In this document: in pieces, positions 9,477-28,260 of the stretch
Position numbering within the stretch: the first letter of the stretch is position 1
How the letters are laid out: each line of letters opens with the position of its first letter
Source of the DNA: a virus
Lineage: Duplodnaviria; Heunggongvirae; Uroviricota; Caudoviricetes
Strand: one strand, 5' to 3'
Virus record (IMG/VR): IMGVR_UViG_3300017971_007904
Length of the DNA: 64,000 bases
Program-made: the position numbers and the translations under genes
The notes under the pieces: model-generated
Told to the model about the DNA's origin: nothing
The model's input: only the letters and a program-made list of their open reading frames with translations
The model's database searches: none

Positions 9477-10994
9477 ATGAACAGAAACGCTGTTCTAGCA
9501 GGCGTCGTAGGAGCCGTCTGTTTGTTTGGTGTCCTAATGGTCATCATTGTCTACAACTGCTTCAGGATCGACGTGCCTAGCAAACACATCGCCGTCCTAA
9601 CGAAGCGAACTGGTCTCGATATCGAGAACCATCAGGAGATTTCCCCAGATGCCGACCACAAAGGTATCCAGCGGGACATCCTGACTGAGGGTCGATATTT
9701 CCGGAATCCCTACTCGTGGGACTGGGAGATCATCCCCATGATCGAGGTTCCCACTGGTAAGCTTGGGGTCCCCGTGCGGCTCGTGGGGGATGACTTACCC
9801 TACGGTGATATCATCGCATGGAAAGAGGAACAGAAAGGCGTTGTCCCTAATGTTCTGCGACCTGGACGATACGCCATCAACCCCTGGATTGAAAAGGTGG
9901 AGATGCACACGCCCGTGACGGTTCCTGCCGGTTTCAAGGGAATTGTCACATTGCTTGCAGCCCCGATGCCAACCGACCCCAATGTCTTGTTGGTCGAAGC
10001 GGGTAAACGAGGTCCACAGAAAGAGACGTTGAATCCGGGGACGTATTACGTCAACCCGTATGTCAAGCGAATCAATCTTATGGACTGCCGTAGCCAACGA
10101 TTCAATCTCGGCCAGAACAAGGACTTTGGCTTTCCGAGTAAGGACGGCTTCTGGGTGAAGCTGGATGGTATCATCGAGTTCCGAGTCAAGCCCGATATGG
10201 CAGCGGAGGTTTTCGTCACCTACAACGAAGTTAGCAATGACTACGAAGGTGAGCGAGTGGACGCCGAAGTGATCAACAAGATCATCCTGCCTAACGCCCT
10301 ATCGTTCTGTCGTTTGAGAGGCTCAAATAACACCGGACGGGACTTTGTTGGTGGGGATACACGTATCCAGTTCCAAGAGGATTTCCAAAAGGCGATGCGA
10401 GCGGCCTGTGATCCGCTTGGCGTTGAGATTATTCAGGCTCTTGTTACGAAGATCGAACCGCCCGATGCCATCGCCTCCCCGATTCGGGATCGAGAGGTCG
10501 CCGAACAACGCTTGGGTCAGTACACACAACAGATCATTCAGCAGCAAAGTGAGAAGGCTCTTGAGATCGAGAAGGCACTCATCGAGCAGAAGAAGGAACT
10601 TATTGGTGCTGAACAGGAAGTTGTCGTGATGACGGTTAAGGCAAAAGAGGAACAGCAAGTTGCTGTGACTAAGGCCAATGAGAACCTTGGTGTGGCCCAA
10701 TTCAAACTGGAGGCCGCTAAGGATGAAGCACTTGCCATCGAAGCAAGAGGTAAGGCTACGGCGGACGTGATCATGTTCGACAACGCAGCCGAGGCTGCGG
10801 GGTGGAAACGTGCTGTCGCTGCGTTTAGTGGTAGCGGTCACGAGTACGCCAAGTATGTCCTCTACACCAAGTTGGCACCCGGCTTTAGGAGCATCATGGC
10901 CAATACAGCCGACTCGCCGCTGATGGAAATCTTCAAGGATTTCCGAAAGACCTCCCAATTCGCCCCGGTTCGATCTGCCCCGGCGACCCGTTAA
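9477..10994 (+). CDS. SPFH/band-7 (flotillin/YqiK-like) membrane protein, paralog 1
   Basis: N-terminal transmembrane helix; long C-terminal coiled coil with Ala/Glu-rich flotillin-like tail (EQRLGQY...KATADVIMFDNAAEAAGWKRAV..FSGSG). Confidence 0.65.
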   Translation: MNRNAVLAGVVGAVCLFGVLMVIIVYNCFRIDVPSKHIAVLTKRTGLDIENHQEISPDADHKGIQRDILTEGRYFRNPYSWDWEIIPMIEVPTGKLGVPVRLVGDDLPYGDIIAWKEEQKGVVPNVLRPGRYAINPWIEKVEMHTPVTVPAGFKGIVTLLAAPMPTDPNVLLVEAGKRGPQKETLNPGTYYVNPYVKRINLMDCRSQRFNLGQNKDFGFPSKDGFWVKLDGIIEFRVKPDMAAEVFVTYNEVSNDYEGERVDAEVINKIILPNALSFCRLRGSNNTGRDFVGGDTRIQFQEDFQKAMRAACDPLGVEIIQALVTKIEPPDAIASPIRDREVAEQRLGQYTQQIIQQQSEKALEIEKALIEQKKELIGAEQEVVVMTVKAKEEQQVAVTKANENLGVAQFKLEAAKDEALAIEARGKATADVIMFDNAAEAAGWKRAVAAFSGSGHEYAKYVLYTKLAPGFRSIMANTADSPLMEIFKDFRKTSQFAPVRSAPATR

Positions 10995-11027
10995 GTCAAC
11001 CATTCCGAATAAGTAAGGAGAAATATC

Positions 11028-12620
11028 GTGAATATGCAAAAGCTTAAGCTGATTGCAATAAGCATCGGCGTTGTGTTGTTTGTTGCGTTCTTTTTCGTCT
11101 GGACCGTCAACAGGGTCTACGTCCCCGAGGGCAAGAGTCTCTTGCTTCGATACAAGGGCCCACTGGTCTTCGGTAAGCGAGATATGGCCCCGAAGGGCCA
11201 CTTCGCCGCAGAGGGCCAAATCGGTGTTCGAGCAAAGCTGCGAGGTCCTGGTCGCCACTTCTACTGTCCCGTTTGGTGGGAGAGGACGATTGTGGATGAT
11301 CAAGTTGTCAAGCCGGGACAAGTGGCCATTGTTCGTTCCATGCTTGGTGACAATTTACCCTCTGGCCAATATCTCGTCGACGGCGAGCTTGGACAAACAA
11401 AGCACAAGGGTATTCTCCGCAAGGCGTATGCGCCAGGACGATACAGGGTTAACCCTTATGCCTACGAGTTTCAGATCGTAGAAGTCGTGAAGCAGAATGT
11501 CGGTAAACAGGTGAAGCATTCGGGGTGGGTAAGTATCCCCACCGGCTATGTCGGTGTTTGTACGAACCTTACGGATATCCCCCAACGCAAGCAAGTGACC
11601 GGTATCCAATCGAAAGTTCTGCCGCCCGGCATCTATCCTGTTAATAGTAAGGAACAACAGATCGACATCGTCGAGATCGGTTTCAGAGAAACCAGTGTTC
11701 ATGCCGAGCTACAACGGGATAGTGACGGTCAAGTGATACTGGACGATACTGGTGAACCGCAAATTGCGGATCAATCAACCGGCATCAACTACCCGAGTAA
11801 CGACGGGTTCCCCATCGTGATGGATTGGACCGCCATCTGGGGTATCATGCCCGATCAGGCACCGGAGGCCATCCGTACTTTCGGAGACGTTGATGCGGTC
11901 GAACAGAAGGTTGTCCTTCCTCAGACCGAGTCCATATGTAGGAATAAGGGCTCTCAGCACTCCGCTGTTGAACTCCTGGTTGGCGAACAACGCCAACAGT
12001 TCCAACTGGACGCCTCCGATGCCTTCCGTAATGTGCTGAAAGAGAAGAACCTCACTCTTCTCTACGGTTTGGTAAGCCACATCTACATTCCCCAAAGTGT
12101 GCGCAAGCCAATCCAGACAAAGTACATCGCCGACGAACTCAAGCTAACCAAAGACCAAGAGCAGAAAACTGCGAAGGTCGAAGCTGATCTGCGTGAGGCG
12201 GAAAGGCAGGTGGGCTTGGAAGGTGAACGAGTGAAATCTGACACGAGGAAGAAAGTTGCGGAAGCTATCGCCATGGGTCGTAAGACGGTTGGTGAAACGC
12301 ATGCCGAAACTACGAAGCTCGTGGCAGCCATCGATAAGGAGGTGGCCGAGTTAGAAGCCCAAGCAACCGTCGTGTTGGGTGAGGCGAGAGCCAACGCTGA
12401 GAAGATGCAAAAGGAGGCGAGATCGCAGAAGTTTGCGCTCGCCGTCGAAGCGTTTGGTTCCGGTTCCGCCTACAACGAGTGGGTGTTCGCTACTGGCCTG
12501 CCGGATGATGTAGACCTCAAGCTGCTATACGCAGGGGAGGGTACGTTCTGGACCGATGTCGACGGGTTCACGAACAAGCTCCTAGGCAAGCAGGAGAGGG
12601 AGCGTCAGAAGAGGAAATAA
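11028..12620 (+). CDS. SPFH/band-7 (flotillin/YqiK-like) membrane protein, paralog 2
   Basis: N-terminal TM helix; same domain order and similar C-terminal tail (…ANAEKMQKEARSQKFALAVEAFGSGSAY…) as the upstream paralog. Confidence 0.65.
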   Translation: MNMQKLKLIAISIGVVLFVAFFFVWTVNRVYVPEGKSLLLRYKGPLVFGKRDMAPKGHFAAEGQIGVRAKLRGPGRHFYCPVWWERTIVDDQVVKPGQVAIVRSMLGDNLPSGQYLVDGELGQTKHKGILRKAYAPGRYRVNPYAYEFQIVEVVKQNVGKQVKHSGWVSIPTGYVGVCTNLTDIPQRKQVTGIQSKVLPPGIYPVNSKEQQIDIVEIGFRETSVHAELQRDSDGQVILDDTGEPQIADQSTGINYPSNDGFPIVMDWTAIWGIMPDQAPEAIRTFGDVDAVEQKVVLPQTESICRNKGSQHSAVELLVGEQRQQFQLDASDAFRNVLKEKNLTLLYGLVSHIYIPQSVRKPIQTKYIADELKLTKDQEQKTAKVEADLREAERQVGLEGERVKSDTRKKVAEAIAMGRKTVGETHAETTKLVAAIDKEVAELEAQATVVLGEARANAEKMQKEARSQKFALAVEAFGSGSAYNEWVFATGLPDDVDLKLLYAGEGTFWTDVDGFTNKLLGKQERERQKRK

Positions 12621-15575: not shown

Positions 15576-15630
15576 CTTTAGATGTGAGATTTCAGTATGA
15601 TAACTTGCATCTAACCAAACGATTCTACCT

Positions 15631-15694
15631 CCGTTTTTTACTTGCGTTTTTTTTACCTGCGTTTTTTTTACCTGTTCATTGTGACTTGTGTCAC
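15631..15694 (+). repeat. three tandem T-rich ~15-nt repeats (CGTTTTTTT(T)ACYTG) followed by a 14-nt perfect palindrome GTGACTTGTGTCAC
   Basis: Direct reading of the intergenic sequence upstream of prkA; candidate UP-element or operator array. Confidence 0.6.
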
Positions 15695-15735
15695 TTGGAA
15701 ACCAGCAGGATTGACCCGCAATTTTGGAGGTAGCT

Positions 15736-17898
15736 ATGTCCACCGAGAATCCGGCCCCAGCCAGTGCCGTCGACAATGGTCAATCGACCTTTGATAAACT
15801 GGCCAAATCTTTCGACTGTGAAGAGTTCCGCAAGCTCACAACTGAGATGACCTTCTCCGAGTATCTCGAAGAGGCCGAGCGGAACCCCCTGGTGTGCCTC
15901 AGCGCCTACCAGAGAATCTACGACATGGTTCTTTCCGCTGGTGTCGAGCGCATCAAGCGGTTCAACAGAACCTTCACCCGCTACAAGTTCTTCGCCGAAC
16001 ATCCGGAGTTTCCGATCTACGGCCTGGAACAGGCCATCGACGGCTTCGTTGGCAACCTGAAAGGTGCCGCTGGGTACTATGGTACCGAAAAGCGAATCCT
16101 CCTGTTGCACGGCCCGGTCGGCTCGTCGAAGTCCACCGCTGTCCGAGCGCTCAAGCGGGGCTTGGAAGAGTACACCATGACGGATCGGGGTGCCCTCTAT
16201 ACCTTCGATTGGATTGACCTACCCGTCGAAGACGACGACGACGGCCCCGGCCTGGAGCTTCGCAAAATTGCGCCGTGCCCCATGCAGGACGACCCCGTCA
16301 AACTCATCCCGCCCGGCCCGATGCGAAAAGAGATGGAGAAGAAGCTCAACGTCGCATTGGAGAACATGAAACTCAGCGATGACGAAGCCGTCGACGCCGA
16401 GCTTCACCGCATCTTCAAGATTCGCCTGGATGGTGAACTCAACCCGCACGACAAGTTCTTCTACCGTGAGTTGCTTCGTCGCTACAAGGGCGACTGGCGG
16501 AGGGTCATGGAGAAGCACATTCGTGTGCGGCGTGTCGTCCTCTCCGAGTCCGACCGTGTCGGCATCGGTACGTTCAGCCCCAAGGACGAGAAGAACCAGG
16601 ATTCGACGGAGTTGAGTGGCGATGTCAACTATATGAAGTTGGGCCAGTACGGTGTCGACTCCGACCCCCGTGCCTTCAACTTTGATGGTGAGTTCGAGGT
16701 GAGCAACCGAGGGCTCTTGGAGATGATCGAAATGCTCAAACTCAACCAGGAGTTCTTGTACGACCTCCTGGGGGCAGCACAAGAGCGACAGATCAAACCC
16801 AAGAAGTTCCCGCAGGTTGGCATCGACGTGTGCATCCTCGGCCACACCAACGATCCGGAATACCAGAAGCTCCTCAAAAACGAGTGCATGGAGGCGCTGA
16901 AGGATAGGACGATTCGGGTCGACTGGCCCTACGTCCTTCGTTGGGAAGACGAGATCAATGTCCTTCGTCACGACTACAACCAGGAAAGGGTTCGACAGCA
17001 CATCGCTCCCCACACCATCGAGATCGCAGCGCTGTTCGCAATTCTCACCCGGTTGAAGACCGACAAGAACATCAAGCTCGATCCGGTCAAGAAGGCCAAG
17101 CTCTACAACGGCCAGACCGTCCCCGGCTATACGGAAGAAGCCGTCAAGGAGTTGATGGACGCCGAACCGTCCGAGGGTATGGACCAGGGCATCAGCGCCC
17201 GTTACGTCCAGAACAAGCTGTCGAACTCCCTCGTGTCCCACCACGACTACGTCAACCCGTTCATGGTTCTCCACGAACTGAAAGAGGGTCTGAAGACCTA
17301 CTCCCTCGTCGGTGACAACGAAAACCGTCGTGCGTTCTACGAGACGTGCGTCGACCTCGCCAAGAAGGAGTTGGACGAGATTCTCAAGAACGAGGTTCGT
17401 CGGGCTCTCGTTATGGACGATGAAGCCATCAGTCGGATGTTCACCTCGTACTTGGACAACGTCTTCGCCTATATCAACAACGAGAAGGTGAAGAACGAGT
17501 ACACCGGTGAGTTCGAGGAACCGAATGAGCGGTTGATGCGGTCCATCGAAGAGAAGATCGACGTTCCCGATCAGGGTGTCGACGACTTCCGCCGCAGCAT
17601 CGCCGCTTACGTCGGCCACATCACCCGCAACGAGGGCGAGAAGGCCCTCAAGTGGGACAGCAACCCCGATCTTGCAAGGGCACTGGAATTGAAGCTGTTC
17701 GAGGAAACGAAGGACAGCATCAAGCTCAGCAGCCTTACCAAGGTCACCGGCGTCATCGACCCGGATATGCAAGAGAAGATCAACCAGATCAAAACCCGGT
17801 TGGTCAAAAACTACGGTTACGACGAGCGCAGTGCGACCGACGTGTTGAACTACGTCGGCTCCATCTTCGCCCGTGGTGACATGGTCGAACAGCAGTAA
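15736..17898 (+). CDS. prkA: PrkA/YeaG-family serine protein kinase (AAA+ N-terminal domain)
   Basis: Walker A LLLHGPVGSSKST in a PrkA-type AAA domain; 721 aa from the ATG at 15736 (GGAGG SD); the C-terminal half matches the PrkA kinase region. Confidence 0.85.
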   Translation: MSTENPAPASAVDNGQSTFDKLAKSFDCEEFRKLTTEMTFSEYLEEAERNPLVCLSAYQRIYDMVLSAGVERIKRFNRTFTRYKFFAEHPEFPIYGLEQAIDGFVGNLKGAAGYYGTEKRILLLHGPVGSSKSTAVRALKRGLEEYTMTDRGALYTFDWIDLPVEDDDDGPGLELRKIAPCPMQDDPVKLIPPGPMRKEMEKKLNVALENMKLSDDEAVDAELHRIFKIRLDGELNPHDKFFYRELLRRYKGDWRRVMEKHIRVRRVVLSESDRVGIGTFSPKDEKNQDSTELSGDVNYMKLGQYGVDSDPRAFNFDGEFEVSNRGLLEMIEMLKLNQEFLYDLLGAAQERQIKPKKFPQVGIDVCILGHTNDPEYQKLLKNECMEALKDRTIRVDWPYVLRWEDEINVLRHDYNQERVRQHIAPHTIEIAALFAILTRLKTDKNIKLDPVKKAKLYNGQTVPGYTEEAVKELMDAEPSEGMDQGISARYVQNKLSNSLVSHHDYVNPFMVLHELKEGLKTYSLVGDNENRRAFYETCVDLAKKELDEILKNEVRRALVMDDEAISRMFTSYLDNVFAYINNEKVKNEYTGEFEEPNERLMRSIEEKIDVPDQGVDDFRRSIAAYVGHITRNEGEKALKWDSNPDLARALELKLFEETKDSIKLSSLTKVTGVIDPDMQEKINQIKTRLVKNYGYDERSATDVLNYVGSIFARGDMVEQQ

Positions 17899-17923
17899 CG
17901 CTCGCTGGGTTAGGGACGACCAG

Positions 17924-17966
17924 CCCCCACCTGTCGCTGCACGCTGCGACAGGTGGGGGCATTTTA
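17924..17966 (+). terminator. Rho-independent terminator after prkA
   Basis: CCCCCACCTGTCGC / GCGACAGGTGGGGG 14-bp stem followed by ATTTT. Confidence 0.7.
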
Positions 17967-17979
17967 CCCGAGGTTTGTC

Positions 17980-18258
17980 ATGGTCAAGTACGTTAACTTT
18001 CAGGTTCCCGGTTTTGGTTCGGTTGTGTCGGTCGAGTCGGGGCATTCGCTCGTCCGGTTGGCCCAGTTGCCGTTAGAAGATGCTATCGTTGCCCTGAAGG
18101 ATTGGGGTAAGAAGTTTCGCAAAAGGTTGATACAGCAATCAGCAACCCCACGAGACCGTTATACCGAATTGGCCCCTTATAACAACCCTCAAGGTTACAC
18201 GGAGCAATCTGCCCAGGATGTTTTCAATCACGTAGGTCAACTACTGGCCACTTCGTAG
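17980..18258 (+). CDS. small protein resembling the PrkA C-terminal tail
   Basis: ATG with GAGG SD; C-terminus GYTEQSAQDVFNHVGQLLA parallels the PrkA C-terminus GYDERSATDVLNYVGSIFA. Confidence 0.4.
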   Translation: MVKYVNFQVPGFGSVVSVESGHSLVRLAQLPLEDAIVALKDWGKKFRKRLIQQSATPRDRYTELAPYNNPQGYTEQSAQDVFNHVGQLLATS

Positions 18259-18268
18259 GAGGTGCAAC

Positions 18269-19501
18269 ATGCCACGGCGCATACAAGAAGATCATAAGAT
18301 GTTCCGAGACGTAGTGTCCGGAACCACAAGACGGGAGTTGAAGAAGTGGATTAAGAGTGGTCGTATCGTCCGCCGTCGAGGTAAGGACAAGCTTGCCATT
18401 CCGATCCCCCGAATCGACCTCCCGCATTTCATATTCGGTAGGCCGACCGAAGGCATCGGTCGGGGGCCCGGCAAGGATGGTGACAAGGTCGGTGAAGAAC
18501 CTGCCCCAAATCAAGGCGACGGGGCCAGCACCGATCCAGGTGATGCCATCCTGGTCGATGTCGACATGGAACGAATCCTCAAGGAAATGGGCGAGGATTG
18601 GGGCTTGCCGAACATGCTCCCGAAAGAGAACGCCACTTTCGAGGAAGTGAAGATTCGGTACAACAGCTTGTCGAAGATCGGCCCGCCGAGTTTGCTTCAC
18701 AAGCGGAAGACCATTCTTCAAACCCTCAAACGTATGTCGGCCATGGGCCAGTTGGGTCCGGAGAACGCACGGATACTCCCCGGTTACAACGTGCCCGTCA
18801 CGCCGCTGATTCCAATCAAGGATGATATGCGGTTTCGCAAGTGGACGGAGCAGCGCATCCCGTCCAGCAACGCCGTCATCTTCTTCGCCCGTGATATCTC
18901 GGGTTCGATGACGACATACAAGTGCGAGATCGTTTCGGACATGGCGTGGTGGATCGATATGTGGATTCGCCAGTTCTATGAAAAAACTGAGCGGGTCTAC
19001 GTTGTTCACGACACCCGTGCCAAAGAAGTCGACGAAGAACGGTTCTACAAGCTCAGGATGGGTGGTGGAACCATTTGCAGTAGCGCACTGAGGTACATCG
19101 CCAAACAGTTGAAGCATCGCTATCCCCCGGAGAAATGGAACGTGTACGTGTTCTATTTTTCGGACGGCGACAACTGGATGGACGACAACGACAAGTTCGT
19201 CAAGGTTCTCCGTGATGACCTTCCGCCCGACAAGGTCAACTTGTTTGGCATGACGCTGATTCTTCCCTGGTGCCAGGAGGGGCTCAAGGAACACCTGGAT
19301 GCTTTGATCAAGAATGGCAAGCTTGACAACAAGTTCATCCGTACCACCGGCATTGATCGTCCGGACAAGGATAAGAACGACCGGTGGGGTTGGTGGTGGT
19401 GGGACGAAACCATGGATGAAGATGCCCGTAACGATGCCATCCGCAACGCTATCCGAGAGTTGCTGGGGGCTCACGATCAGGCTTCCGAAAAAGCCGCATA
19501 A
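18269..19501 (+). CDS. yeaH: YeaH/YhbH-family DUF444 (vWA-like) protein
   Basis: vWA-like core FFARDISGSM...YVFYFSDGDNW; size and position between prkA and spoVR as in bacterial yeaG-yeaH-ycgB loci. Confidence 0.85.
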   Translation: MPRRIQEDHKMFRDVVSGTTRRELKKWIKSGRIVRRRGKDKLAIPIPRIDLPHFIFGRPTEGIGRGPGKDGDKVGEEPAPNQGDGASTDPGDAILVDVDMERILKEMGEDWGLPNMLPKENATFEEVKIRYNSLSKIGPPSLLHKRKTILQTLKRMSAMGQLGPENARILPGYNVPVTPLIPIKDDMRFRKWTEQRIPSSNAVIFFARDISGSMTTYKCEIVSDMAWWIDMWIRQFYEKTERVYVVHDTRAKEVDEERFYKLRMGGGTICSSALRYIAKQLKHRYPPEKWNVYVFYFSDGDNWMDDNDKFVKVLRDDLPPDKVNLFGMTLILPWCQEGLKEHLDALIKNGKLDNKFIRTTGIDRPDKDKNDRWGWWWWDETMDEDARNDAIRNAIRELLGAHDQASEKAA

Positions 19502-19515
19502 TTGGAGGTGCAACC

Positions 19516-21144
19516 ATGCCCAGTACGATGTTGCACGGGTCGCCGATTTTACTCGACGACAATACCGTGCCCGGCGTGAAGTACACGCCAGAACTTGAGG
19601 AGGTTATTCCAAAGGTCATCCAAGCGTGCTTGGACTTCGGGCTCAAGCCCTACAAGCCTGTTGTCGAGGTCCTCACATACGATGACATTTCGGAGGTGGC
19701 TGCCTACGGGGGCTTCCCCGTGAGGTTCCCCCACTGGTCCTTTGGGATGGAGTATGAAGAACTCAGCAAAGGCTATGAGTTCGGCATGCACAAGATTTAC
19801 GAGATGGTAATCAATACCAATCCGGCATACATCTACTGTCTCGATTCCAACCCCCTGCTCGACCACGTTACGGTCATCGCTCACGCCACAGGCCACAGCG
19901 ATTTCTTCCGCCAGAACGTCTGGTTCGAGCCGACTACCGAGAACGCTCTGAACGAATTGGCCAACCACGGCAGCCGGATTCGGCGGTACATGGACCGCTG
20001 GGGCCGGGAGAAGGTCGGCCAGTTCATCGATTGGGTCCTTTGCGTCGACGATCTGATCGACCTATCCGCATCGTGGCGGTCGAGGCAGGTCAAAGAGCTA
20101 CGAGTCAAGGATAGGCGGGAATACCACTACCCCCGTCGACTCAAGCTGCCGTCGACCGAGGACGAAGAGCACGATTACATGGAACCCTGGATCAACGACG
20201 ATCAGTGGAAGAAGTTCGAGAAGGAACGTCTGGCTCGCCTGGAAGCGGCGCAGACCTTGAACATCTTCAAAGGTAACGACAAGGATGTCCTGGGTTACCT
20301 CGTCAAGAACGCTCCGTTGGTCCCCTGGCAACAGGACATCATCAGTATGCTCTACCGGGAGGCGCAATACTTTGCCCCCCAAGCCTTGACCAAGATGATG
20401 AACGAGGGCTGGGCGTCCTACGTCGATTACAACATCATGGCCCGAAAGCATTGGGCTGGTGGTGGTGGAATCTACGACTACTCCAAGCACAAGATGGGTG
20501 TGCTGGGTGGTAAGTACTCGACCAACCCGTATGCCGTTGGGTTTAAGCTCTTCCTTTACATTGAAGAGCGATGGAACAAGGGCCGCTTCGGAAGGGAATA
20601 CGAGCAGTGCGAAGACATGACCAAGAGGAAGAATTGGGACACGAAGGCCGGTAAGGGCCACGAGAAGGTGTTCGAGGTTCGGGAAATCCACAACGACCTG
20701 ACGGCGATCCAGCAGTTCGTCGACCAGGAGTTCGTGGACCAGTACGAACTCTACGTCTGGGAGAAGTTCCCACGACCGGACGGCGGGTTCGACTACCGGA
20801 TCAAGACACGGGATGCCAAGGAGATCAAGAAAATCCTCATGCAGAGGTACTCCAACGGTGGTCGTCCCGACATCCGCCTTACCGACCCGAACTACGCCAA
20901 CAAGGACATCCTCTTATTGCAACACTTTTGGGAGGGACGAATCCTCGCCCGGCGCTACGCCCAGGCCACCCTCGTCTGCCTCTGGAACCTCTGGAACCAG
21001 GGTGGCGTGGCCGGAAAGCGGCCTGTCGCCGTTGCGACGAAGGACAAGGACGGCGAAGAATTTGTCTACGTCTGCACCGGTACCAAACCGGAGCAGAACC
21101 AGATTCTCCGTCGCAAGAAGTTCGAGGAAGAGTTCGGCTCCTAA
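19516..21144 (+). CDS. spoVR: SpoVR/YcgB-family protein
   Basis: Conserved FPHWSFGMEYEEL, IYEMVINTNPAYIY, HATGHSDFF motifs; 542 aa. Confidence 0.88.
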   Translation: MPSTMLHGSPILLDDNTVPGVKYTPELEEVIPKVIQACLDFGLKPYKPVVEVLTYDDISEVAAYGGFPVRFPHWSFGMEYEELSKGYEFGMHKIYEMVINTNPAYIYCLDSNPLLDHVTVIAHATGHSDFFRQNVWFEPTTENALNELANHGSRIRRYMDRWGREKVGQFIDWVLCVDDLIDLSASWRSRQVKELRVKDRREYHYPRRLKLPSTEDEEHDYMEPWINDDQWKKFEKERLARLEAAQTLNIFKGNDKDVLGYLVKNAPLVPWQQDIISMLYREAQYFAPQALTKMMNEGWASYVDYNIMARKHWAGGGGIYDYSKHKMGVLGGKYSTNPYAVGFKLFLYIEERWNKGRFGREYEQCEDMTKRKNWDTKAGKGHEKVFEVREIHNDLTAIQQFVDQEFVDQYELYVWEKFPRPDGGFDYRIKTRDAKEIKKILMQRYSNGGRPDIRLTDPNYANKDILLLQHFWEGRILARRYAQATLVCLWNLWNQGGVAGKRPVAVATKDKDGEEFVYVCTGTKPEQNQILRRKKFEEEFGS

Positions 21145-21193
21145 GGGCACGAAGCACCTCCTTGGGTCAAGTTCGCTGAACAGGGCCCTGCAC

Positions 21194-21233
21194 AGCCAGC
21201 CACCAGACATTGTCTGGTGGCTGGCTTTTTTTC
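21194..21233 (+). terminator. Rho-independent terminator after spoVR
   Basis: AGCCAGCCACCAGACA / TGTCTGGTGGCTGGCT stem followed by TTTTTTT. Confidence 0.8.
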
Positions 21234-21320: not shown

Positions 21321-21989
21321 ATGCCTAGAGGTCCTAAGAAGCAAATCCCGCAATCAGAGGTGTCACAACTAATCAATGACGTGCATGGTTTGAATATCAA
21401 TGCACGAACCAGAGAACTCTTCTTAATGGGATATGCGGGAGATTCGCAGGAAGAAGACCCTGGAGTTGATTACCGTTCAGCCGGTACCTTTTTGAAGAAC
21501 TTGCACATCTTAGAGACCCTTGGCCGCTCCAAAATCATCGTCCACATGCAAATCACGGGCGGTGAGTGGAGTTATGGTATGGGCATTTACAATGCCATCC
21601 AGGCGGCAAAATCTTCTGTTACGATAGTCGCCTATGCTCACGCCACTTCGATGAGTGGTGTGATCCTTCAGGCGGCTGATAACCGCATCCTGATGCCGGA
21701 TACGCACTTCATGTTGCACTACGGTTCTCTGGGGATCGAATCGACCTCACAGGCCGTTTTAGCGTGTGTGGAGCAGAATGAGCGGGATAACAAGCGGATG
21801 CTTGAAATCTTCGCTGAGCGGGCCGTAGAGGGCCCACATTTCCGTGCCAAGCGGTGGGGCGTGAAACGAGTGTCCGATTACATCGACCACGAGATGCGGC
21901 AGAAAGGTGATTGGTACCTGAGCGCCACGGAGGCTGTGGAGTATGGCTTTGCGGATGGTGTCTTAGGACGAGACATTACGAAAGTATGA
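21321..21989 (+). CDS. ClpP-family (S14) serine peptidase
   Basis: ClpP-like core with catalytic Ser in ATSMSG and His in MPDTHFMLHYG; 222 aa. Confidence 0.75.
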   Translation: MPRGPKKQIPQSEVSQLINDVHGLNINARTRELFLMGYAGDSQEEDPGVDYRSAGTFLKNLHILETLGRSKIIVHMQITGGEWSYGMGIYNAIQAAKSSVTIVAYAHATSMSGVILQAADNRILMPDTHFMLHYGSLGIESTSQAVLACVEQNERDNKRMLEIFAERAVEGPHFRAKRWGVKRVSDYIDHEMRQKGDWYLSATEAVEYGFADGVLGRDITKV

Positions 21990-22664: not shown

Positions 22665-25193
22665 ATGAAGAAGTGTGAAACGTGTGGCCTAGAGCATTTG
22701 CATCGACACTCAGATTTCTCTCTCCTAGACGGGTTTGCTACCGTCGAGGAGTATGCGGCTTACTCCGAGGCCGCTAATCAGAAGTATCTGTGTATCAGCG
22801 ACCACGGTATGCTTGGTTGCATCCCCCGCCAGATTCGGGCTTGTGACGAGTACAATCTTCAGCCGGTATTTGCCTGTCTTACCGCTGGCCAGCCGATATA
22901 TCTAAAGGATGGAATCAAGCCAATCGAAGAGGTATTGGTTGGTGATCAGGTGTTGACCGATAAGGGTCGTTATCGCAAAGTACTACGAGTGATGAGTCGG
23001 CGGTATCAGGGAAGTCTTTATAAAGTCAAGTTGGCGAACCAAACTGGTAGAGCCTTGATGCAAACGCTAACAGGGGAGCATCCGATTCTCATAAGGAGCT
23101 ATAATGGTCAATATAGCTGGATACCAGTATCGCAAATATTGACAGGCCGTCCCACTACGAAGCGTGGACTTAAAAACCACAATTCGTATGTCTGTTATCC
23201 GCAGAGCAGATCGTCACGTTCTGTAACTTTGAAGATTAGTGACTATCTTCCTGATATTTTTGAATGCGGTGATACCATTGTTCGTACTGGTTGGAAAGGG
23301 GTAGCTGCTTATGAGTGGGAAATTCCACCTGAGTTTGAATTAGATGAGAATTTTGCATATTTCTTGGGCTTATATGTGGCGGAAGGCTCATCGACCACCA
23401 ATAAAAAAGGTTTGCCAAATGGAGCTATGAGGTTGTCATTACATGCCAAAGAGTCTCCTTTGGTGGAAAGGTGCCAACCTGCTGTTGAAGCATTTGGTAT
23501 CAAATTTCATTTGTATCCACGACCTGAGATCAATCGTTTAGATGTTCATTTTGGTTGTCTACCCTTATCTTACATCATTAGGCAACTGTGCGGTATTGGA
23601 TCGCATTGCAAAAAAGTACCCTCCCCAATCTTTCAAAGCTCACTTTCGGTGAAAAAGGCTTTTATGGAAGGTTTGATGGATGGCGATGGCAAAATTAGTG
23701 GTGTGCAAGATGTGTTGAGGGTAGCGTCAAAAGAGTTGGCGTGGGGTGTCAAGAGATTGTTATCCGATTTAGGGTATTGGTCTAATGTTGGGCTTTCTAA
23801 GGATGGTGACAAGGAGTGCTACCATCTCAGTTATTGTCCGGAACGAACATATGCTAGAAGTTTTGTCGAAGATGGCTCTGTAATGTCACCGGTTCAAGAC
23901 ATTGTTGAATTACGTGATCAAGATGTCATGGTATACAATTTAGAGGTAGAAGAGGACAACAGCTATGTCAGTTATTTCGCTGTACATAACTGTGAGTTGT
24001 ACGTCAACAACGCACAACCCATTTGCCGAGACCCAGAAGACTACGTCAAATACGTCGAAGAGAACTCTCCCGAGACGAAGGAGACCCTTCGTAAGTCCTA
24101 TCATCTACTGGCGATAGCTTACACGAATCAAGGTTACAGCAACCTCGTACAGCTTGCGTCGTGGGGCCACATTTATGGTTGGGGTGGCGTACCACGTCGA
24201 CCACGGATCACGCACGAGCAGTTGATGAAGCACAAAGAGGGCTTGATCTTTTCATCGTGTTGCTATCTCTCGGAGATTGGTCAAACCTTTGATCGGTACG
24301 GTCGAGATGCCGCTTTTGCCATGATCGAGAAGTACATGGCCATGTTTGGCGATAACTTCTATCTGGAGTTGATGCTCTTGGACTTCAAGAAGCAAAAGCC
24401 ATACGACCAGTTTCTTATTGAGGCTCATGACCGGTATCACATCCCTCTGAACATCACGCAGGATTGCCACTACTGCAAACAAGAGGATGCTAAGTACCAG
24501 CAGTATATGCTGATGATACGCACGAAGCACACGGTGGCTGACATTGAGGCGGCTATCGAACAGGGTGAGGCAAGGGAAGGTTTCTTTGAGTTACAGGATC
24601 AGCAACTTTGGATGAAAACTGAAGAGGAGTTGAACGAAAAGTGGAACGAAGATTACACCGACGCAATCCCGTATGAACTCTTTTGTCAGGCTAAGCATAA
24701 CACGGTCGAGATATGTCGGAAAGCCGAAGGAGTTGAGATCGACCGTACCATCAAGTTGCCCGAAATCGACGAGGCTGACGAGAAGCTCTGGGAGGGGCTT
24801 TGTAAAGGTTTCAAATGGCGAGGTTTGGAGGGTAAGGCTGACTATATGCAACGCTTGAGAGAGGAGTATGAGCTTATCTGCCGCAAAGACTTCTCCAGTT
24901 ACTTTCTCTTGACAAAGATGTTTACGGATGAGGGTCGTCGAGCGTGCCCCAAACTGATTGGTTGGGGAACTGGCGAAGAGGCAATTAGCCCTGGCCGAGG
25001 GTCGGGTGTGAGCTTCCTATCCAATTACGTCTTGGGTATTACGGATGTTGATCCAATCCGCCACGACTTAGTCCCAGAAAGGTTCCTCAGTGATGCACGG
25101 GGTGGTCGTCAACTGAAGCTACAGTTTGATAGTGAGCCGATTAGTACGGCTCATAGTCATCCGGAATCTCCCAATCATCCGGAATCGGAATGA
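22665..25193 (+). CDS. dnaE: DNA polymerase III alpha subunit (DnaE), N-terminal fragment (PHP domain through the GPGRGSG region), interrupted by an intein
   Basis: PHP motif LHRHSDFSLLDG; after the intein, SYFLLTKMF...SPGRGSGVSFLSNYVLGITDVDPIRHDLVPERFLSDAR aligns with E. coli DnaE ~residues 300-400; the last ~30 aa are non-homologous. Confidence 0.85.
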   Translation: MKKCETCGLEHLHRHSDFSLLDGFATVEEYAAYSEAANQKYLCISDHGMLGCIPRQIRACDEYNLQPVFACLTAGQPIYLKDGIKPIEEVLVGDQVLTDKGRYRKVLRVMSRRYQGSLYKVKLANQTGRALMQTLTGEHPILIRSYNGQYSWIPVSQILTGRPTTKRGLKNHNSYVCYPQSRSSRSVTLKISDYLPDIFECGDTIVRTGWKGVAAYEWEIPPEFELDENFAYFLGLYVAEGSSTTNKKGLPNGAMRLSLHAKESPLVERCQPAVEAFGIKFHLYPRPEINRLDVHFGCLPLSYIIRQLCGIGSHCKKVPSPIFQSSLSVKKAFMEGLMDGDGKISGVQDVLRVASKELAWGVKRLLSDLGYWSNVGLSKDGDKECYHLSYCPERTYARSFVEDGSVMSPVQDIVELRDQDVMVYNLEVEEDNSYVSYFAVHNCELYVNNAQPICRDPEDYVKYVEENSPETKETLRKSYHLLAIAYTNQGYSNLVQLASWGHIYGWGGVPRRPRITHEQLMKHKEGLIFSSCCYLSEIGQTFDRYGRDAAFAMIEKYMAMFGDNFYLELMLLDFKKQKPYDQFLIEAHDRYHIPLNITQDCHYCKQEDAKYQQYMLMIRTKHTVADIEAAIEQGEAREGFFELQDQQLWMKTEEELNEKWNEDYTDAIPYELFCQAKHNTVEICRKAEGVEIDRTIKLPEIDEADEKLWEGLCKGFKWRGLEGKADYMQRLREEYELICRKDFSSYFLLTKMFTDEGRRACPKLIGWGTGEEAISPGRGSGVSFLSNYVLGITDVDPIRHDLVPERFLSDARGGRQLKLQFDSEPISTAHSHPESPNHPESE
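22875..23990 (+). mobile_element. intein (372 aa) with LAGLIDADG homing-endonuclease domain inserted in the DnaE PHP domain
   Basis: N-splice block CLTAGQPIYL, block B TLTGEHPIL, LAGLIDADG-like FAYFLGLYVAEGS and FMEGLMDGDGKIS, C-terminal VYNLEVEE...FAVHN followed by extein Cys (CELYV). Confidence 0.8.
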
Positions 25194-25653
25194 ATTGTGG
25201 TGGTTTGTCGGCCCGGTACATGATGACTTCGGCGTGGGTTTCTTGTATATCGATATCCCAGCCCAACATGTCTTGTTCGGGCATTATCACAAAGAAGCAA
25301 TTACTGCCGTAGCTACCACCCATGCCCCATCGATCACTACCGAATGGTTCGCTTTTTGAAACAAAGACCCATCGTATTCCGTTATCCCATAGGAACTCTT
25401 CCATCTTTTCGGCCCACTCTTCATACTCACCGGAGTATTTGTCGTTGTTTGGAGGTTCTTGGATGCCTAAGTCGTAAAGTTTATCAGTTAGATTGTAAGG
25501 TATGTGCTCCAGAATCCAATTACCCCATTGTGACTGGGTAAAGTAACTGGCTACGATACGGCCATCTGGCTTTTCGTACTTGCTACAATGAAAACCCCTG
25601 AAGTCGGGACTCTCCATTGGATCGTTCTGTTCAAGCCATAGTCGGAATTGCAT
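25141..25653 (-). CDS. hypothetical protein (Trp/acidic-rich), overlapping the 3' tail of the dnaE N-fragment
   Basis: 170-aa ORF with protein-like composition; overlaps the non-homologous tail of the DnaE N-fragment by 53 nt. Confidence 0.5.
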   Translation of the reverse strand: MQFRLWLEQNDPMESPDFRGFHCSKYEKPDGRIVASYFTQSQWGNWILEHIPYNLTDKLYDLGIQEPPNNDKYSGEYEEWAEKMEEFLWDNGIRWVFVSKSEPFGSDRWGMGGSYGSNCFFVIMPEQDMLGWDIDIQETHAEVIMYRADKPPQFIPIPDDWEIPDDYEPY

Positions 25654-25718
25654 GTCATATCTACTGGGAGAAAGGAGAAAATTGCCCTCCCGATGCTAAA
25701 TAACAAACAGACTAGGAG

Positions 25719-25904
25719 GTGGTTATGATCAAACGTGACGTAGACAACGCTCTGGTATTTGGTGTGTGTGCTGGCATAGCGAAGCACCTGGATGTCAGTG
25801 TGGCGTTAGTGCGTGTGCTAACGGTTTTGAGTTTCATTTTCACGGGCTCCATTACGTTTTGGGCCTATATCATAGCTGCGATTTTGCTGCCAAAAGAAGA
25901 ATAA
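25719..25904 (+). CDS. PspC-domain small membrane protein
   Basis: GVCAGIAKHLDV...VRVLTVL followed by a TM segment; SD AGGAGG. Confidence 0.6.
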   Translation: MVMIKRDVDNALVFGVCAGIAKHLDVSVALVRVLTVLSFIFTGSITFWAYIIAAILLPKEE

Positions 25905-25919
25905 TGTGTAGGAGAAGCA

Positions 25920-27149
25920 ATGGGTAAATACCGTGCTTTTGATGATTTCGTTGAAGGTAAGAAGCTTGATGACAAGCCCCCTAAGAAGGCGAAGGTGAGT
26001 GCTGATGTGCCACCACAAGGTAAGAACCCCACGCCTTATTACGGCCCTCATGCGAAGAACGACCCCAAGCCGAAGCTGAGAGTTGTCGAGAAGCCAGCTA
26101 ATGCACTTGGCGATGAGGCAACACCGGCGCTGAAAAAACCCGAAGATAACCTTCCCTCTGGTAAGAAGCCGTCTCACGACCATATGACAATCGAGAGATA
26201 CATCGAAGCTAGGAATAAGGGTAAGAAGATCAAGGATGAGTACGATGGCAAAGTTCGTGTCAGGGTGACTGATAAGGTTGAAGCGGGTCTCGGCGACGAG
26301 GCTAGCCCCCGCATGGAGAAGCCAGATACGAACCTCCCCACGGGCAAAAAGCCGACTCGAAAGGGTTTGACTACTGAGGAATACTTGAGGGAAACGGAGG
26401 AGCTTTCCGACTCCGAGTTCATCATCTCTGAGGTAAAAAAAACGAAAAACGACGATGAAGATGTCGGCCCGGTAATGCATTGCCAACGAAGGGGTATCGC
26501 AATAGTCCCCTCATCGAGTGAGGCAGCTAGTTACATGGCCAGCGTTATACCCATCAATGATCGTGCGGTGCGAACACTCGTACACGAAGTGATAAACACT
26601 CCGGGTGCATTGGGAGCTTTGATCGCAGAATTGGCAGCACATAATGATACCTACTCAGAACTTGTAGGTCAGATGAATGGTCCTGATTCAAGAGTACCAC
26701 GTCGTTTGGTGAAAGCAATGAGAGAAGACTATGATAAGTTCATGTCAGACCTCGGGCTCAACGAAGCGGTGAATGCACCAATGGATGATCGGGATAAGGC
26801 TGCCGACCCGGTCCCGGCCCCGGCCCCCGAAGGAGCAGCCTCACCTACGTCTGAGATTACAGCAGGTGCTAGTTTAATGGGACCGGAAGGTGTTCCCGGT
26901 GGACCAGCCCCAGCAGCAGGACCAGGACCAGGACCAGGACCAGGACCAGTAGGGCCGCCTCCAGCACCGGCACCGGGACCTCCAGCGCCAGCGGCAGGTG
27001 CGCCAGCAATGCCGCCAGCAACGCCGCCAACAGCGGGTGGACGACAGCCACTAGCGGCAAACAGGAAGTTTGCATACCATCACGTCCTGAAAGAGATGGG
27101 CAAACACGATAACATGATGAATTATATGAGAGAGATAATAGGTGGTTAA
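25920..27149 (+). CDS. repeat-containing Pro/Ala/Gly-rich protein
   Basis: Two ~45-aa repeats (ALGDEATPALKKPEDNLPSGKKPS... / GLGDEASPRMEKPDTNLPTGKKPT...) and a C-terminal PAPAPGPGPGPGP tract; SD AGGAGA. Confidence 0.6.
   Translation: MGKYRAFDDFVEGKKLDDKPPKKAKVSADVPPQGKNPTPYYGPHAKNDPKPKLRVVEKPANALGDEATPALKKPEDNLPSGKKPSHDHMTIERYIEARNKGKKIKDEYDGKVRVRVTDKVEAGLGDEASPRMEKPDTNLPTGKKPTRKGLTTEEYLRETEELSDSEFIISEVKKTKNDDEDVGPVMHCQRRGIAIVPSSSEAASYMASVIPINDRAVRTLVHEVINTPGALGALIAELAAHNDTYSELVGQMNGPDSRVPRRLVKAMREDYDKFMSDLGLNEAVNAPMDDRDKAADPVPAPAPEGAASPTSEITAGASLMGPEGVPGGPAPAAGPGPGPGPGPVGPPPAPAPGPPAPAAGAPAMPPATPPTAGGRQPLAANRKFAYHHVLKEMGKHDNMMNYMREIIGG
26919..26948 (+). repeat. (GGACCA)x5 hexanucleotide tandem repeat inside the CDS (encodes GPGPGPGPGP)
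   Basis: Direct reading of the sequence. Confidence 0.8.
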
Positions 27150-27150
27150 C

Positions 27151-27582
27151 ATGACAAGATTCAAATCGTGGAACGAGTACGCTACGGAACGTGCGGCAAA
27201 CGAAGGTAAGGAGCCAACAAACGAAAGTAAGGACACCAAGAAGGAGTTCATCCATCTTTCTAAGACGCCTGAAGAGCAGAATGCTACGTGCTCTGGTGAG
27301 CCCCTTGATCTGACTTACCGTGAGGAAGACGAGTATAAGAAGATGTTAGACTTCCTTCGAGGTAAGAAGAATGTCCCCGATCCTCCGAAACCACCCGCCG
27401 AAGCACCGAAAGGTTGGTTCATCGCCGATGAGCAGAGCCGTGGTTTCTGGTATGACAATGGTTGGACTCAAGACACTAGTTTCCTCAATGAAGCGGTTAT
27501 CGATTCAGAGCGAGCAGCACACGCTTTAGCCCAGGTTGTGGGCGGCGTTGTCATCCCCGCTGAAGAGGTAATGGGTAACTGA
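27151..27582 (+). CDS. hypothetical protein
   Basis: ATG at 27151 with AGGTGG SD; 143 aa. Confidence 0.5.
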   Translation: MTRFKSWNEYATERAANEGKEPTNESKDTKKEFIHLSKTPEEQNATCSGEPLDLTYREEDEYKKMLDFLRGKKNVPDPPKPPAEAPKGWFIADEQSRGFWYDNGWTQDTSFLNEAVIDSERAAHALAQVVGGVVIPAEEVMGN

Positions 27583-27635
27583 CATTGACTCAGTTTTCTC
27601 CATAAATTACAATACGTCTACTCCATTGGGAGTAA

Positions 27636-27985
27636 GGGGGCGACAGGTATCGATTGGCTATGTCGATAACGGGTTGCCTGCCGTGGTTGGTCAGCAGGCC
27701 ACGTAAAAAGCCGACCACTAAACTTTAAGTGCCGAACCGGTACGAATGGCTGCTTAAGAGTAGCCCAGGCCAAGGAAGCCCGCCAGCGGCGTCCGGAAGC
27801 CTGCCGAAAATGTTGGCTGGATTCAGGTCATTGTCGACTACGCCTGGGTTGAGATCAGTTGTCATGACTAGCCGTTAGAACTTTGTTCGCCGAGGTCGAA
27901 TCGGTAAAACCAAAAGACGAACTATTGCAGGTAGACGCCTTTTTGAGACTAGTGCAACACAGCGGTTCGAGTCCGCTCGCCTCCA
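27636..27985 (+). ncRNA. ssrA: tmRNA (ssrA)
   Basis: 5' GGGGGCG pairs with 3' CGCCUCC as a 7-bp acceptor stem carrying the G3:U70 alanine identity pair; T-arm AGCGG-UUCGAGU-CCGCU; internal GGUUGG...CGUAAAAAGCCG closely matches E. coli tmRNA upstream of the tag ORF; candidate tag reading frame GCC GAA CCG GUA CGA AUG GCU GCU UAA (AEPVRMAA) at 27730-27756; discriminator A; CCA not fully encoded. Confidence 0.8.
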
Positions 27986-27994
27986 CTTTCTACA

Positions 27995-28040
27995 CCACCA
28001 CCCTTCCAGCCTAGTGGCTGGAAGGGTGGTGGCCCCTTTC
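27995..28040 (+). terminator. Rho-independent terminator after the tmRNA
   Basis: CCACCACCCTTCCAGCC / GGCTGGAAGGGTGGTGG 17-bp stem, 4-nt loop, then CCCCTTTCT. Confidence 0.7.
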
Positions 28041-28053
28041 TGAGGACGAACCG

Positions 28054-28260
28054 ATGAAAAGTCTTCCCTACCTTATCATGTTGTTCGTTATTTTTCCACT
28101 TGGCATCTGGCATCATTTTTGCAATAAAGTGGTGGTAACAGGCCCGGCAACTCCCCACGAGTTCATGATTGCGAATTACAGCCAACACCCCGTCTTCACA
28201 GGGGTCTTTTTCGGAGTCTTTGTACTAATACTCGTCTTGATGGCGATTACTTGGAAGTAA
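28054..28260 (+). CDS. small hydrophobic membrane protein
   Basis: 68 aa with two predicted TM helices. Confidence 0.4.
   Translation: MKSLPYLIMLFVIFPLGIWHHFCNKVVVTGPATPHEFMIANYSQHPVFTGVFFGVFVLILVLMAITWK

Follow-up and report, generated by a model that had tools for sequence, protein, structure and literature searches.

The PrkA-YeaH-SpoVR gene trio of a probable huge phage and its apparent long inheritance beside the replicative polymerase in a viral clade

PrkA (YeaG), YeaH (YhbH), and SpoVR (YcgB) are among the most widespread bacterial proteins with an unsettled molecular function. Price et al. reported that mutants of yeaG, yeaH, and ycgB show tightly correlated fitness in six species and inferred that the three genes belong to one pathway. 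The PrkA of Bacillus subtilis binds and hydrolyzes ATP through its Walker A lysine, a residue that sporulation requires; it has been reported to degrade casein in an ATP-dependent manner and was found to show no kinase activity. The PrkA of Bacillus anthracis has been described as a clade-III AAA+ protein that has an aromatic-Gly pore loop and forms oligomers induced by ATP, and the pure protein was neither a protease nor a kinase. In this study, we analyzed the genes prkA, yeaH, and spoVR in a 64,000-nucleotide stretch of DNA from a virus of the class Caudoviricetes (IMG/VR record IMGVR_UViG_3300017971_007904; the whole stretch is hereafter called the window), where they are adjacent, lie on one strand, and follow the order of the bacterial operon. 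We find that the trio is an old, co-inherited, near-core module of the huge-phage clade around the genome LR756511 and not an occasional accessory. This conclusion is based on a census of loci, the monophyly of each protein, their co-divergence, their base composition, and their inteins, taken together.

Genes of these families have been deposited with phage genomes before. The Thermus phage phiYS40 (GenBank, 2006) carries within 6 kb a 'conserved bacterial protein' (YeaH-like by tblastn), a 'SpoVR', and a 'serine kinase', and the trio adjoins the genes of the terminase and the tail sheath. In the Ralstonia jumbo phage RsoM2USA, three contiguous open reading frames (ORFs), ORF30-29-28, make up the trio, and the description of this phage places PrkA and SpoVR in separate functional tables and does not link them. 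Uncultured phages of 634-642 kb have YeaG-type copies too. In the 2020 huge-phage paper, matches to PrkA and SpoVR are contained in the supplementary hidden Markov model tables and GenBank files of several genomes, on which the main text is silent; a marine virome study reported spoVR as the most abundant 'sporulation AMG' (auxiliary metabolic gene), and the trio families go unmentioned in a comparative review of 224 jumbo phages. The first-pass annotation of the window was aware of no characterized case of the whole module in a phage. That such a phage is unrecorded does not stand, in view of phiYS40, RsoM2USA, the huge-phage supplements, and the virome spoVR; as to function, we found in the literature no study of any phage copy, nor any paper that treats the trio as a unit in phages. 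The window trio is an added member, in a distinct subclade, of the phage-borne PrkA-YeaH-SpoVR modules that public records already contain. The literature searched seems to hold no description of the near-core status of the trio, of its monophyly and its co-divergence with the polymerase, of inteins in phage SpoVR, of a zincin-like model of SpoVR, or of a small ORF that mimics the PrkA tail.

Like the window, phiYS40/TMA and RsoM2USA have all three families adjacent to each other, and they are bona fide plaque-forming phages. However, their proteins show only 25-31% identity to those of the window. RsoM2USA and the 634-642-kb phages have a short YeaG-type PrkA, unlike the long form of the window, and the gene order of phiYS40 is yeaH-spoVR-X-prkA. 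The trios of phiYS40/TMA and RsoM2USA belong to separate lineages, which probably arose from separate acquisitions. The 30.8-kb 'complete phage genome' record of Enterobacter phage LAU1 (MN688132.1, locus L164) opens, at positions 1-3308, with an enterobacterial YeaG and YeaH beside tail genes; this pair does not look like phage genes but like host flank that was carried along at the boundary of a prophage.

The families assigned to the three proteins in the first pass proved correct in Pfam profile searches, in which all of them scored far above threshold. PrkA matched AAA_PrkA (PF08298; 3.9e-73, 247 bits) and the PrkA C-terminal domain (PF06798; 4e-67, 227 bits) in order, with a cut-off of 25; YeaH matched DUF444 (PF04285; 1.3e-65, 222.5 bits; cut-off, 27); and SpoVR matched PF04293 (2.4e-101, 339.9 bits) over profile positions 5-406 of 407. 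The SpoVR_C domain (PF24755), which is present in many relatives, reached 18.7 bits in the window SpoVR against a cut-off of 27.6. PrkA is related to the PDB entry 9xip 'Serine protein kinase' (also 9xiq and 9xir) with an E value of 1.2e-198, and 9xip typifies the long subfamily of about 690 aa; a search of the PDB with YeaH and SpoVR found no sequence relative of either. Two start codons are candidates for prkA, TTG at 15724 and ATG at 15736, and a GGAGG at 15726-15730 ends five bases before the ATG. The protein read from the ATG is 100% identical and equal in length to a database protein (P0001) on a 234,261-bp JGI contig, and a SpoVR identical to that of the window is found on a contig of 339,821 bp; the ORF had been placed correctly in the first pass, and its length of 721 aa was one residue off. 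Against NCBIfam, the window PrkA scored 180.7 bits with PRK15455, the enterobacterial YeaG equivalog model, whose cut-off is 576, and YeaH matched a PRK05325-type model at 6e-92, which is under the equivalog cut-off. The enterobacterial and Bacillus equivalog models were matched well below their cut-offs; the trio proteins belong to the families and are not close orthologues of the model-organism proteins.

The residues expected to carry the activities of these families are retained. In PrkA, the Walker A motif GPVGxxKS (GPVGSSKS, K132), the E329/E332 box, H370-T-N, and D390-R-T are invariant among 64 phage and 79 bacterial sequences. The aromatic-Gly pair of the pore loop (F/Y/W305-G306) is also invariant, and the window PrkA has the PKDEKNQD motif. 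In YeaH, the metal ion-dependent adhesion site (MIDAS) residues D209xS211xS213...T268...D299 are invariant among 64 phage and 56 bacterial homologues. The invariant motifs of SpoVR are H123-x3-H127 and N296-E297-G298-x-A300-S/T. The signature motifs of the trio do not vary across 53-64 phage sequences, which points to purifying selection. SpoVR also has phage-specific residues, among them A124, D304, and the G331-G332-K-Y-S block. Its HxxxH motif reads H-A-x-G-H in phages and H-V-x-G-H in bacteria, with the Glu of HExxH replaced by Ala or Val, respectively. H123/H127 together with NEGxA(S/T), which is similar to the helix that bears the third ligand in gluzincins, would parallel the HExxH...NEGFAS pattern of gluzincins, and we regard this parallel as a lead and not as a result. 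Because the catalytic Glu of HExxH is absent, SpoVR was not filed as a peptidase. A Foldseek search of the SpoVR model against the PDB gave nothing significant and did not reproduce a match to the zincin fold, a search against viral predicted structures gave one unnamed match (E = 1.4e-9), and no paper linking SpoVR to zincins was found in the literature.

The window trio thus resembles the bacterial YeaG(PrkA)-YeaH(YhbH)-YcgB(SpoVR) trio in its Pfam families, gene order, Walker A motif, pore loop, MIDAS, and SpoVR signature residues. However, the phage copies form a deep clade of their own, they score below the NCBIfam equivalog cut-offs, and their neighbors are different, with a Zn-ribbon-like ORF upstream and genes for a ClpP-like protein and DnaE downstream. 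In a scan of IMG/VR, PrkA at 51-80% identity turned up on 137 viral contigs, which in some cases are 250-570 kb long. In the 81 loci found through PrkA, yeaH lies downstream in 79 and spoVR in 76, in the same order; a heptose-kinase/cytidylyltransferase-like gene lies upstream in 70, and DnaE is encoded downstream in 53. A ClpP-like gene sits between spoVR and dnaE in 28 of these loci and in no bacterial locus. Bacterial loci with the prkA-yeaH-spoVR order number 45-56, and phage loci with it about 76. The block order of the clade is a Zn-ribbon-like protein, prkA, yeaH, spoVR, often a ClpP-like gene, and then the DnaE replicative polymerase. The ORF upstream of prkA has a tblastn match just 5' of prkA in 31 of the 81 phage loci; no true bacterial locus gave such a match. 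Its homologues in relatives give a weak match to Pfam Zn_ribbon_8, whereas the window copy lacks the cysteines and has no match in Pfam, PADLOC, or NCBIfam. This ORF may encode a phage-specific fourth component.

Loci found through PrkA carry an ascertainment bias, and for this reason an independent census was run through the polymerase. IMG/VR was searched with an alignment of a DnaE segment, since a query with a single DnaE protein had found only 11 loci, and the count was taken over those loci that extend 9 kb or more upstream of DnaE (n = 71). The upstream stretch contained spoVR in 64, yeaH in 61, and prkA in 59 of the 71 loci, which corresponds to about 90% of the clade, and two of the seven exceptions have distant polymerases that lie outside the clade.

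The first pass had raised the question of whether the three genes were acquired together and from which host clade. Neighbor-joining trees were built with 147 PrkA, 122 YeaH, and 99 SpoVR sequences and 100 bootstraps. The split between the phage clade and the rest was recovered in 99 of 100 replicates for PrkA and in all 100 for both YeaH and SpoVR, so that each of the three proteins forms one phage clade. In the YeaG-rooted trees, the phage clade is sister to all sampled bacterial sequences (45-79), and because it is sister to the entire bacterial sample, no donor clade was identified and the donor cannot be assigned to a phylum. Within the clade, the trio proteins correlate in their pairwise distances among themselves (r = 0.85-0.90) and with DnaE (r = 0.67-0.75; Mantel p = 0.001), as expected from co-divergence. 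PrkA is more conserved than the polymerase, the mean p-distance being 0.35 for PrkA and 0.44 for DnaE. The G+C content of the trio is 0.56, compared with 0.485 for the rest of the window, a difference of 7.5 points. A recent horizontal transfer, as the high G+C content might suggest, was considered and rejected, because 75 of 78 loci from related phages likewise have a trio richer in G+C than the flanking DNA; the step in the window thus belongs to the genes themselves and is not a scar of transfer. Neither the patchy spread nor the nesting in a host clade that would mark a sporadic host-derived auxiliary gene was observed, and the shared gene order and clade-specific branching that mark members of the LR756511 clade were both found. 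These data speak against an accessory gene picked up now and then from a host; they fit a near-core module of ancient origin, inherited along with the replication genes.

Inteins add to this picture. Inteins are typically found in proteins whose loss is not tolerated, and there at the most conserved sites. SpoVR contains in-frame, full-size inteins (Intein_splicing and LAGLIDADG_3) in 18 loci. They are inserted after residue ~100 or after A300, between the A and the S of NEGWAS, with some loci having both, and these positions are the two most conserved motifs of SpoVR. The window SpoVR has no intein, and that of the nearest relative (L256, 11726-14569) has one; other intein-bearing spoVR genes lie at 13335-17396 in L036, 13287-16085 in L007, and 13778-16660 in L006. 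An intein in a bacterial SpoVR-like protein, from Chloroflexus, is already listed in InBase.

The viral assignment of the window rests on its relatives, because the window has no structural gene and carries cell-like genes. No capsid, portal, tail, or complete terminase gene was found within the 64 kb, and the cell-like genes include those for DnaE, DnaJ, a thiamine pyrophosphate (TPP) enzyme, a glutamyl-tRNA synthetase (GluRS)-like ORF, sugar-nucleotide enzymes, PhoH, SPFH proteins, and transfer-messenger RNA (tmRNA). This content, together with the deposition of some relatives inside bacterial or archaeal metagenome-assembled genomes (MAGs), could suggest a fragment of a bacterial chromosome or a mis-binned scaffold. 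However, the closest public record is LR756511 (SR-VP_PHAGE_COMPLETE_CIR-CU-CL_42_23), a curated complete circular phage genome of 595,163 bp from vernal-pool mud, and 82% of its genes have no taxonomic affiliation. Its PrkA, YeaH, and SpoVR are 57%, 47%, and 51% identical to those of the window, and the two share the order of upstream small ORF, trio, dnaE, and two downstream genes, a flanking synteny that extends to the IMG/VR relatives. A nucleotide search of the phage collection gave only one weak match, again LR756511 (64.5% over 24% of the query), and searches at the protein level were therefore needed. The window belongs to a divergent subclade, with relatives at 60-83%. In two relatives, L056 and L041, a 265-aa ORF resembling the terminase large subunit (TerL) lies directly upstream of prkA (phrog_5989 at 1e-26, phrog_2).

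The true bacterial loci, which come from Calditrichia, Chloroflexota, Planctomycetota, Myxococcota, and Bdellovibrionota MAGs, have no ClpP-like, DnaE, or heptose-kinase-like neighbors. The nearest cellular copies are 50-53% identical for PrkA, 33-41% for YeaH, and 36-44% for SpoVR, the last two being clearly more distant than the phage relatives. The 340-546-kb 'MAG' contigs are more plausibly phages that were mis-binned: L082 (CALFYV010000090.1, 546 kb, filed under a Bacteriovoracaceae MAG) follows the phage synteny, with a phage-type trio and phage-specific neighbors, and on a 546,492-bp contig (proteins P0047/P0160) and a 340,072-bp contig (protein P0185) only the phage-clade proteins were seen. 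These contigs, deposited within Bacteriovoracaceae, 'Crenarchaeota', and 'Proteobacteria' MAGs, are probably huge phages. With the synteny to LR756511, the IMG/VR contigs, which number at least 137, and the TerL-like ORFs beside prkA, the phage-like context noted in the first pass is upheld; we are nearly certain that the window is viral, and a cellular origin is hardly credible. Two window proteins with strong PHROG matches (54335-55501 and 48271-49893) had been considered as viral proof and were set aside as uninformative, as they are DnaJ and a TPP-dependent enzyme. The TerL-like ORFs, found by local tblastn over the retrieved loci, are located on the minus strand at 8969-9766 in L056, 2647-3447 in L041, and ~3556-4362 in L223; they are stand-alone and match the ATPase half only, and the L223 copy is a tblastn match only, with no prkA inside the fetched flank.

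All long ORFs between 15.1 and 22.0 kb are on the plus strand, and the features of this region are collected in Table 1.

Table 1. Positions of the trio, its signals, and its immediate neighbors in the window
Feature	Position	Strand	Description
Upstream small protein, 137 aa	15162..15575	+	directly 5' of prkA; degenerate zinc-ribbon-like
prkA 5' leader / regulatory region	15576..15735	+	repeats, palindrome, anti-SD (anti-Shine-Dalgarno) stretch
prkA	15736..17898	+	AAA+ ATPase and PrkA C-terminal domain, 720 aa, long (~690-aa) subfamily
G+C-rich hairpin after prkA, 15-bp	17923..17960	+	dG (folding free energy) -43.4 kcal/mol in context, z -4.7
Mini-ORF	17980..18258	+	92 aa from ATG; 101 aa from GTG 17953
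yeaH / DUF444	18269..19501	+	vWA-domain protein, full MIDAS motif, 410 aa
spoVR	19516..21144	+	SpoVR family, 542 aa; predicted zincin-like fold; start 14 nt past yeaH stop
Intrinsic terminator, end of module	21194..21233	+	15-bp stem (10 G-C pairs), 3-nt loop, T7 tail
ClpP-family serine peptidase gene	21321..21989	+	frequent 3' neighbor, outside trio proper

The layout of the trio fits a single transcription unit with an internal hairpin that would attenuate or stabilize the transcript. A promoter scan found no sigma-70-type promoter on the plus strand upstream of prkA or between prkA and yeaH. The prkA leader contains two exact tandem copies of GCGTTTTTTTTACCTG, at 15644-15659 and 15659-15674, and this sequence has 3 matches in the window at up to 3 mismatches, compared with 0.6 expected. 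The leader also contains the palindrome GTGAC-N4-GTCAC at 15681-15694. An anti-SD stretch, CTACCTCC (CUACCUCC) at 15625-15632, is able to pair with the Shine-Dalgarno sequence GGAGGTAG (GGAGGUAG) at 15726-15733, and the leader folds with a dG of -31 and a z of -2.9; this pairing might, very tentatively, be a translational switch. Two terminators had been proposed in the first pass, at 17924 and 21194. The latter is canonical, with a stem-loop at 21194-21226, a U7 tail, and a fold of -32 kcal/mol (z = -5.9). The former is a strong hairpin, which none of 200 shuffles equaled in stability, with a weak U tail, CAUUUUAC (CATTTTAC), and it is because the tail is CATTTTAC that the terminator scan missed it. 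We suggest that the hairpin after prkA is an attenuator or an mRNA-stabilizing element rather than a full terminator. It lies in the 370-nt spacer between prkA and yeaH, which also contains the mini-ORF, and a GGAGG is found 7 nt 5' of the yeaH ATG.

The mini-ORF had been said to resemble the C terminus of PrkA, and the comparison confirmed it. Of its last 19 residues (GYTEQSAQDVFNHVGQLLA), 11 are identical to the C-terminal helix of PrkA, G694-Y-x-E-x-S-A-T-D-V-L-x-Y-V-x-S-I-F-A-R-G-D, which is nearly invariant in phage and bacterial PrkA. Against 162 PrkAs, the match always falls at the extreme C terminus (E = 0.002-0.02), and a co-linear alignment of 69 aa between the two proteins is possible. 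The nearest relative, L256, whose PrkA is 83% identical, has a homologous ORF of 66 aa that shows 57% identity over 49 aa (E = 4e-19) and ends in GYTEQSAQDVIDHVGGLFARS, and the mini-ORF is called as a gene on identical public contigs. By tblastn and blastp, no counterpart was present in the prkA-yeaH spacers of 80 IMG/VR loci, nor was one found in relatives with a PrkA identity of 74-80%. A widespread gene is therefore ruled out; among the LR756511 clade, the 370-nt spacer with its hairpin and mini-ORF is shared by the window and its nearest relative only. Because it is missing from the spacers of 80 relatives and kept in the nearest one, the mini-ORF is a recently arisen gene, particular to this subclade, that originated from the 3' end of prkA, and its product may be a mimic of the PrkA tail. 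A defense or anti-defense system was considered and rejected, as PADLOC gave no match for PrkA, YeaH, SpoVR, the ClpP-like protein, or the upstream ORF; its sole match was a marginal one of ZorC with the mini-ORF (E = 0.003), which was taken as noise.

Further features of the window concern the genes around the trio. The DnaE (Pol III alpha) gene, contiguous in LR756511, is present in the window as two ORFs (22665-25193 and 32300-34936) separated by an insert of 7.1 kb (25194-32299). The split falls inside the palm/NTPase domain, the first ORF covering positions 18-98 of Pfam DNA_pol3_alpha and the second covering 100-259. An intein with Hint and LAGLIDADG domains is also present in the first ORF, and no room was seen in the window for canonical split-intein halves. 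The insert contains the tmRNA (27636-27988, plus strand; Rfam RF00023, 95.6 bits, full length), for which ARAGORN predicts the unusual tag peptide AEPVRMAA, as well as an ORF like GluRS or the glutaminyl-tRNA synthetase GlnRS, a HAD hydrolase, and two minus-strand sugar-nucleotide genes. Sugar-nucleotide genes are found at 30508-32294 (minus), 52740-53633 (plus), and 62435-63373 (minus) and comprise two UDP-glucose-dehydrogenase-like and two epimerase-like ORFs. The window also encodes a glycosyltransferase, as well as a fusion of a PfkB kinase with a cytidylyltransferase (5514-6989), which 70 loci retain upstream of the trio. Genes of proteostasis or stress type are two tandem SPFH/Band-7 genes (9477-12620), the ClpP-family gene, dnaJ, and a gene for a PhoH-like ATPase (59463-60137). 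The ClpP-like protein matches Pfam CLP_protease at 2.5e-18, and the NCBIfam models for ClpP and for 'ClpP-related head maturation protease' tie at about 1e-14.

Taking the whole together, we consider the best explanation to be an intact, anciently inherited trio that acts as a protein-remodeling unit in the infected cell, with a probability of roughly 55%. In such a unit, the trio proteins would work together as they do in bacteria. PrkA would be an ATP-driven AAA+ motor, YeaH a vWA/MIDAS adaptor, as in other AAA+/vWA pairs, and SpoVR a zincin-like metal-binding effector or a substrate-handling subunit. The unit would act on selected proteins of the infected cell, remodeling them or breaking them down, and the starvation or stationary-phase adaptation of the host would thereby come under phage control through a long infection. 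The hairpin after prkA would determine how much PrkA is made relative to YeaH and SpoVR, and in the window subclade only, the mini-protein that copies the C-terminal helix of PrkA may tune the complex. A three-part machine would explain the weak or absent protease activity of PrkA alone. Two kinds of known systems offer analogies. The MoxR-vWA systems, RavA-ViaA and NorQ-NorD, likewise couple an AAA+ ATPase genetically to a vWA protein with a full MIDAS, but PrkA lies outside the MoxR ATPases, and its C-terminal domain is unique. The AAA+-zincin proteases FtsH and YME1 are similar in that clade III of the AAA+ proteins, to which PrkA has been assigned, includes YME1 and in that SpoVR has a predicted zincin-like fold; in the trio, however, a protein of its own would supply the zincin-like module, and it lacks the Glu of HExxH.

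Several points weigh against this explanation, in addition to the lack of structural genes in the window. A physical association of the three proteins is taken from gene linkage and cofitness. The activity of PrkA is disputed, having been described as that of a kinase in early work and of a protease in B. subtilis, with neither found in B. anthracis, and a peptidase activity of SpoVR is doubtful. Six of the 69 clade members tested through DnaE have no trio inside the 10 kb upstream. The trees are simple neighbor-joining trees, and their bacterial sample consists of the 80 closest of more than 600 matches. A bolder form of the explanation, in which the trio is an essential, self-contained remodeling or proteolytic machine that has been core since before the clade diversified, is needed in every infection, and is regulated by the mini-protein in the window subclade, is possible, although we think it unlikely.

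The trio could also be a classical auxiliary set, captured fairly recently from a host, that replaces the host YeaG, YeaH, and YcgB and pushes the cell into or out of dormancy or sporulation; in the first pass, the module had been taken to suggest a manipulation of host dormancy or stress decisions. The bacterial pathway is indeed tied to starvation adaptation and sporulation, spoVR has been read in this way in viromes, and the trio has the raised G+C content described above. Moreover, capture seems to have been repeated elsewhere, as RsoM2USA and the 634-642-kb phages have YeaG-type copies of about 25% identity and the Thermus phages have another gene order. However, recent capture is difficult to reconcile with a trio that is near-universal in its clade, fixed beside the polymerase, monophyletic, and co-diverging with it, with a clade-wide G+C excess, with the absence of an identifiable donor phylum, and with the low identity of the nearest cellular copies, and we regard it as improbable. 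We hold a similarly low opinion of the proposal that the AAA+/vWA pair and SpoVR form an assembly or maturation chaperone for virion or replisome proteins. It draws on the MoxR-vWA pairs that have been proposed to assist virion assembly in jumbo phages and that an archaeal virus uses in tail development, and it could accommodate the ClpP-family gene beside the trio in 28 loci, with its equal score for a head maturation protease, the TerL-like ORFs that abut prkA in some relatives, and the terminase and tail sheath genes beside the phiYS40 trio. Near-core status and inteins would also fit an essential phage function of this kind. On the other hand, the same trio with the same motifs occurs in hundreds of bacteria that do not assemble virions, PrkA is not of the MoxR class, and the usual neighbors are replication genes and not structural genes.

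A signaling role has also been considered, in which PrkA would phosphorylate host proteins on Ser/Thr, with YeaH and SpoVR as regulators and without proteolysis or remodeling. Price et al. cite earlier work in which YeaG phosphorylated itself and casein in vitro, and both the family and PDB 9xip bear the name 'serine protein kinase'. However, no kinase activity was found for the PrkA of B. subtilis or B. anthracis, the kinase-type P-loop is degenerate, and the AAA+ Walker A motif is the only functional ATP site; we consider this role very unlikely. Returning to the remodeling unit, the proteostasis and stress-type neighbors, together with the bacterial phenotypes, favor control of the starvation physiology of the infected cell, and the ClpP-like and terminase-like neighbors leave room for a role in assembly.

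The retention of all three proteins by huge phages argues for a self-sufficient functional unit that is needed by these phages, because the trio is more conserved than the polymerase, is fixed beside replication genes, and has been invaded by inteins as essential genes are. The finding also brings a caution, in that viral 'spoVR' matches in metagenomes should not be taken as evidence of sporulation control, and it flags the 340-546-kb 'MAG' contigs as probable huge phages. RsoM2USA and phiYS40 are culturable carriers through which the trio can be approached, and the many divergent sequences can be used for co-evolution analysis and complex modeling. Structural leads are provided by a zincin-like SpoVR without the catalytic Glu and by a mini-protein that mimics the PrkA tail. 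If the trio is indeed a core machine, these phages would offer a compact, host-independent system for a decades-old biochemical question on a bacterial pathway.

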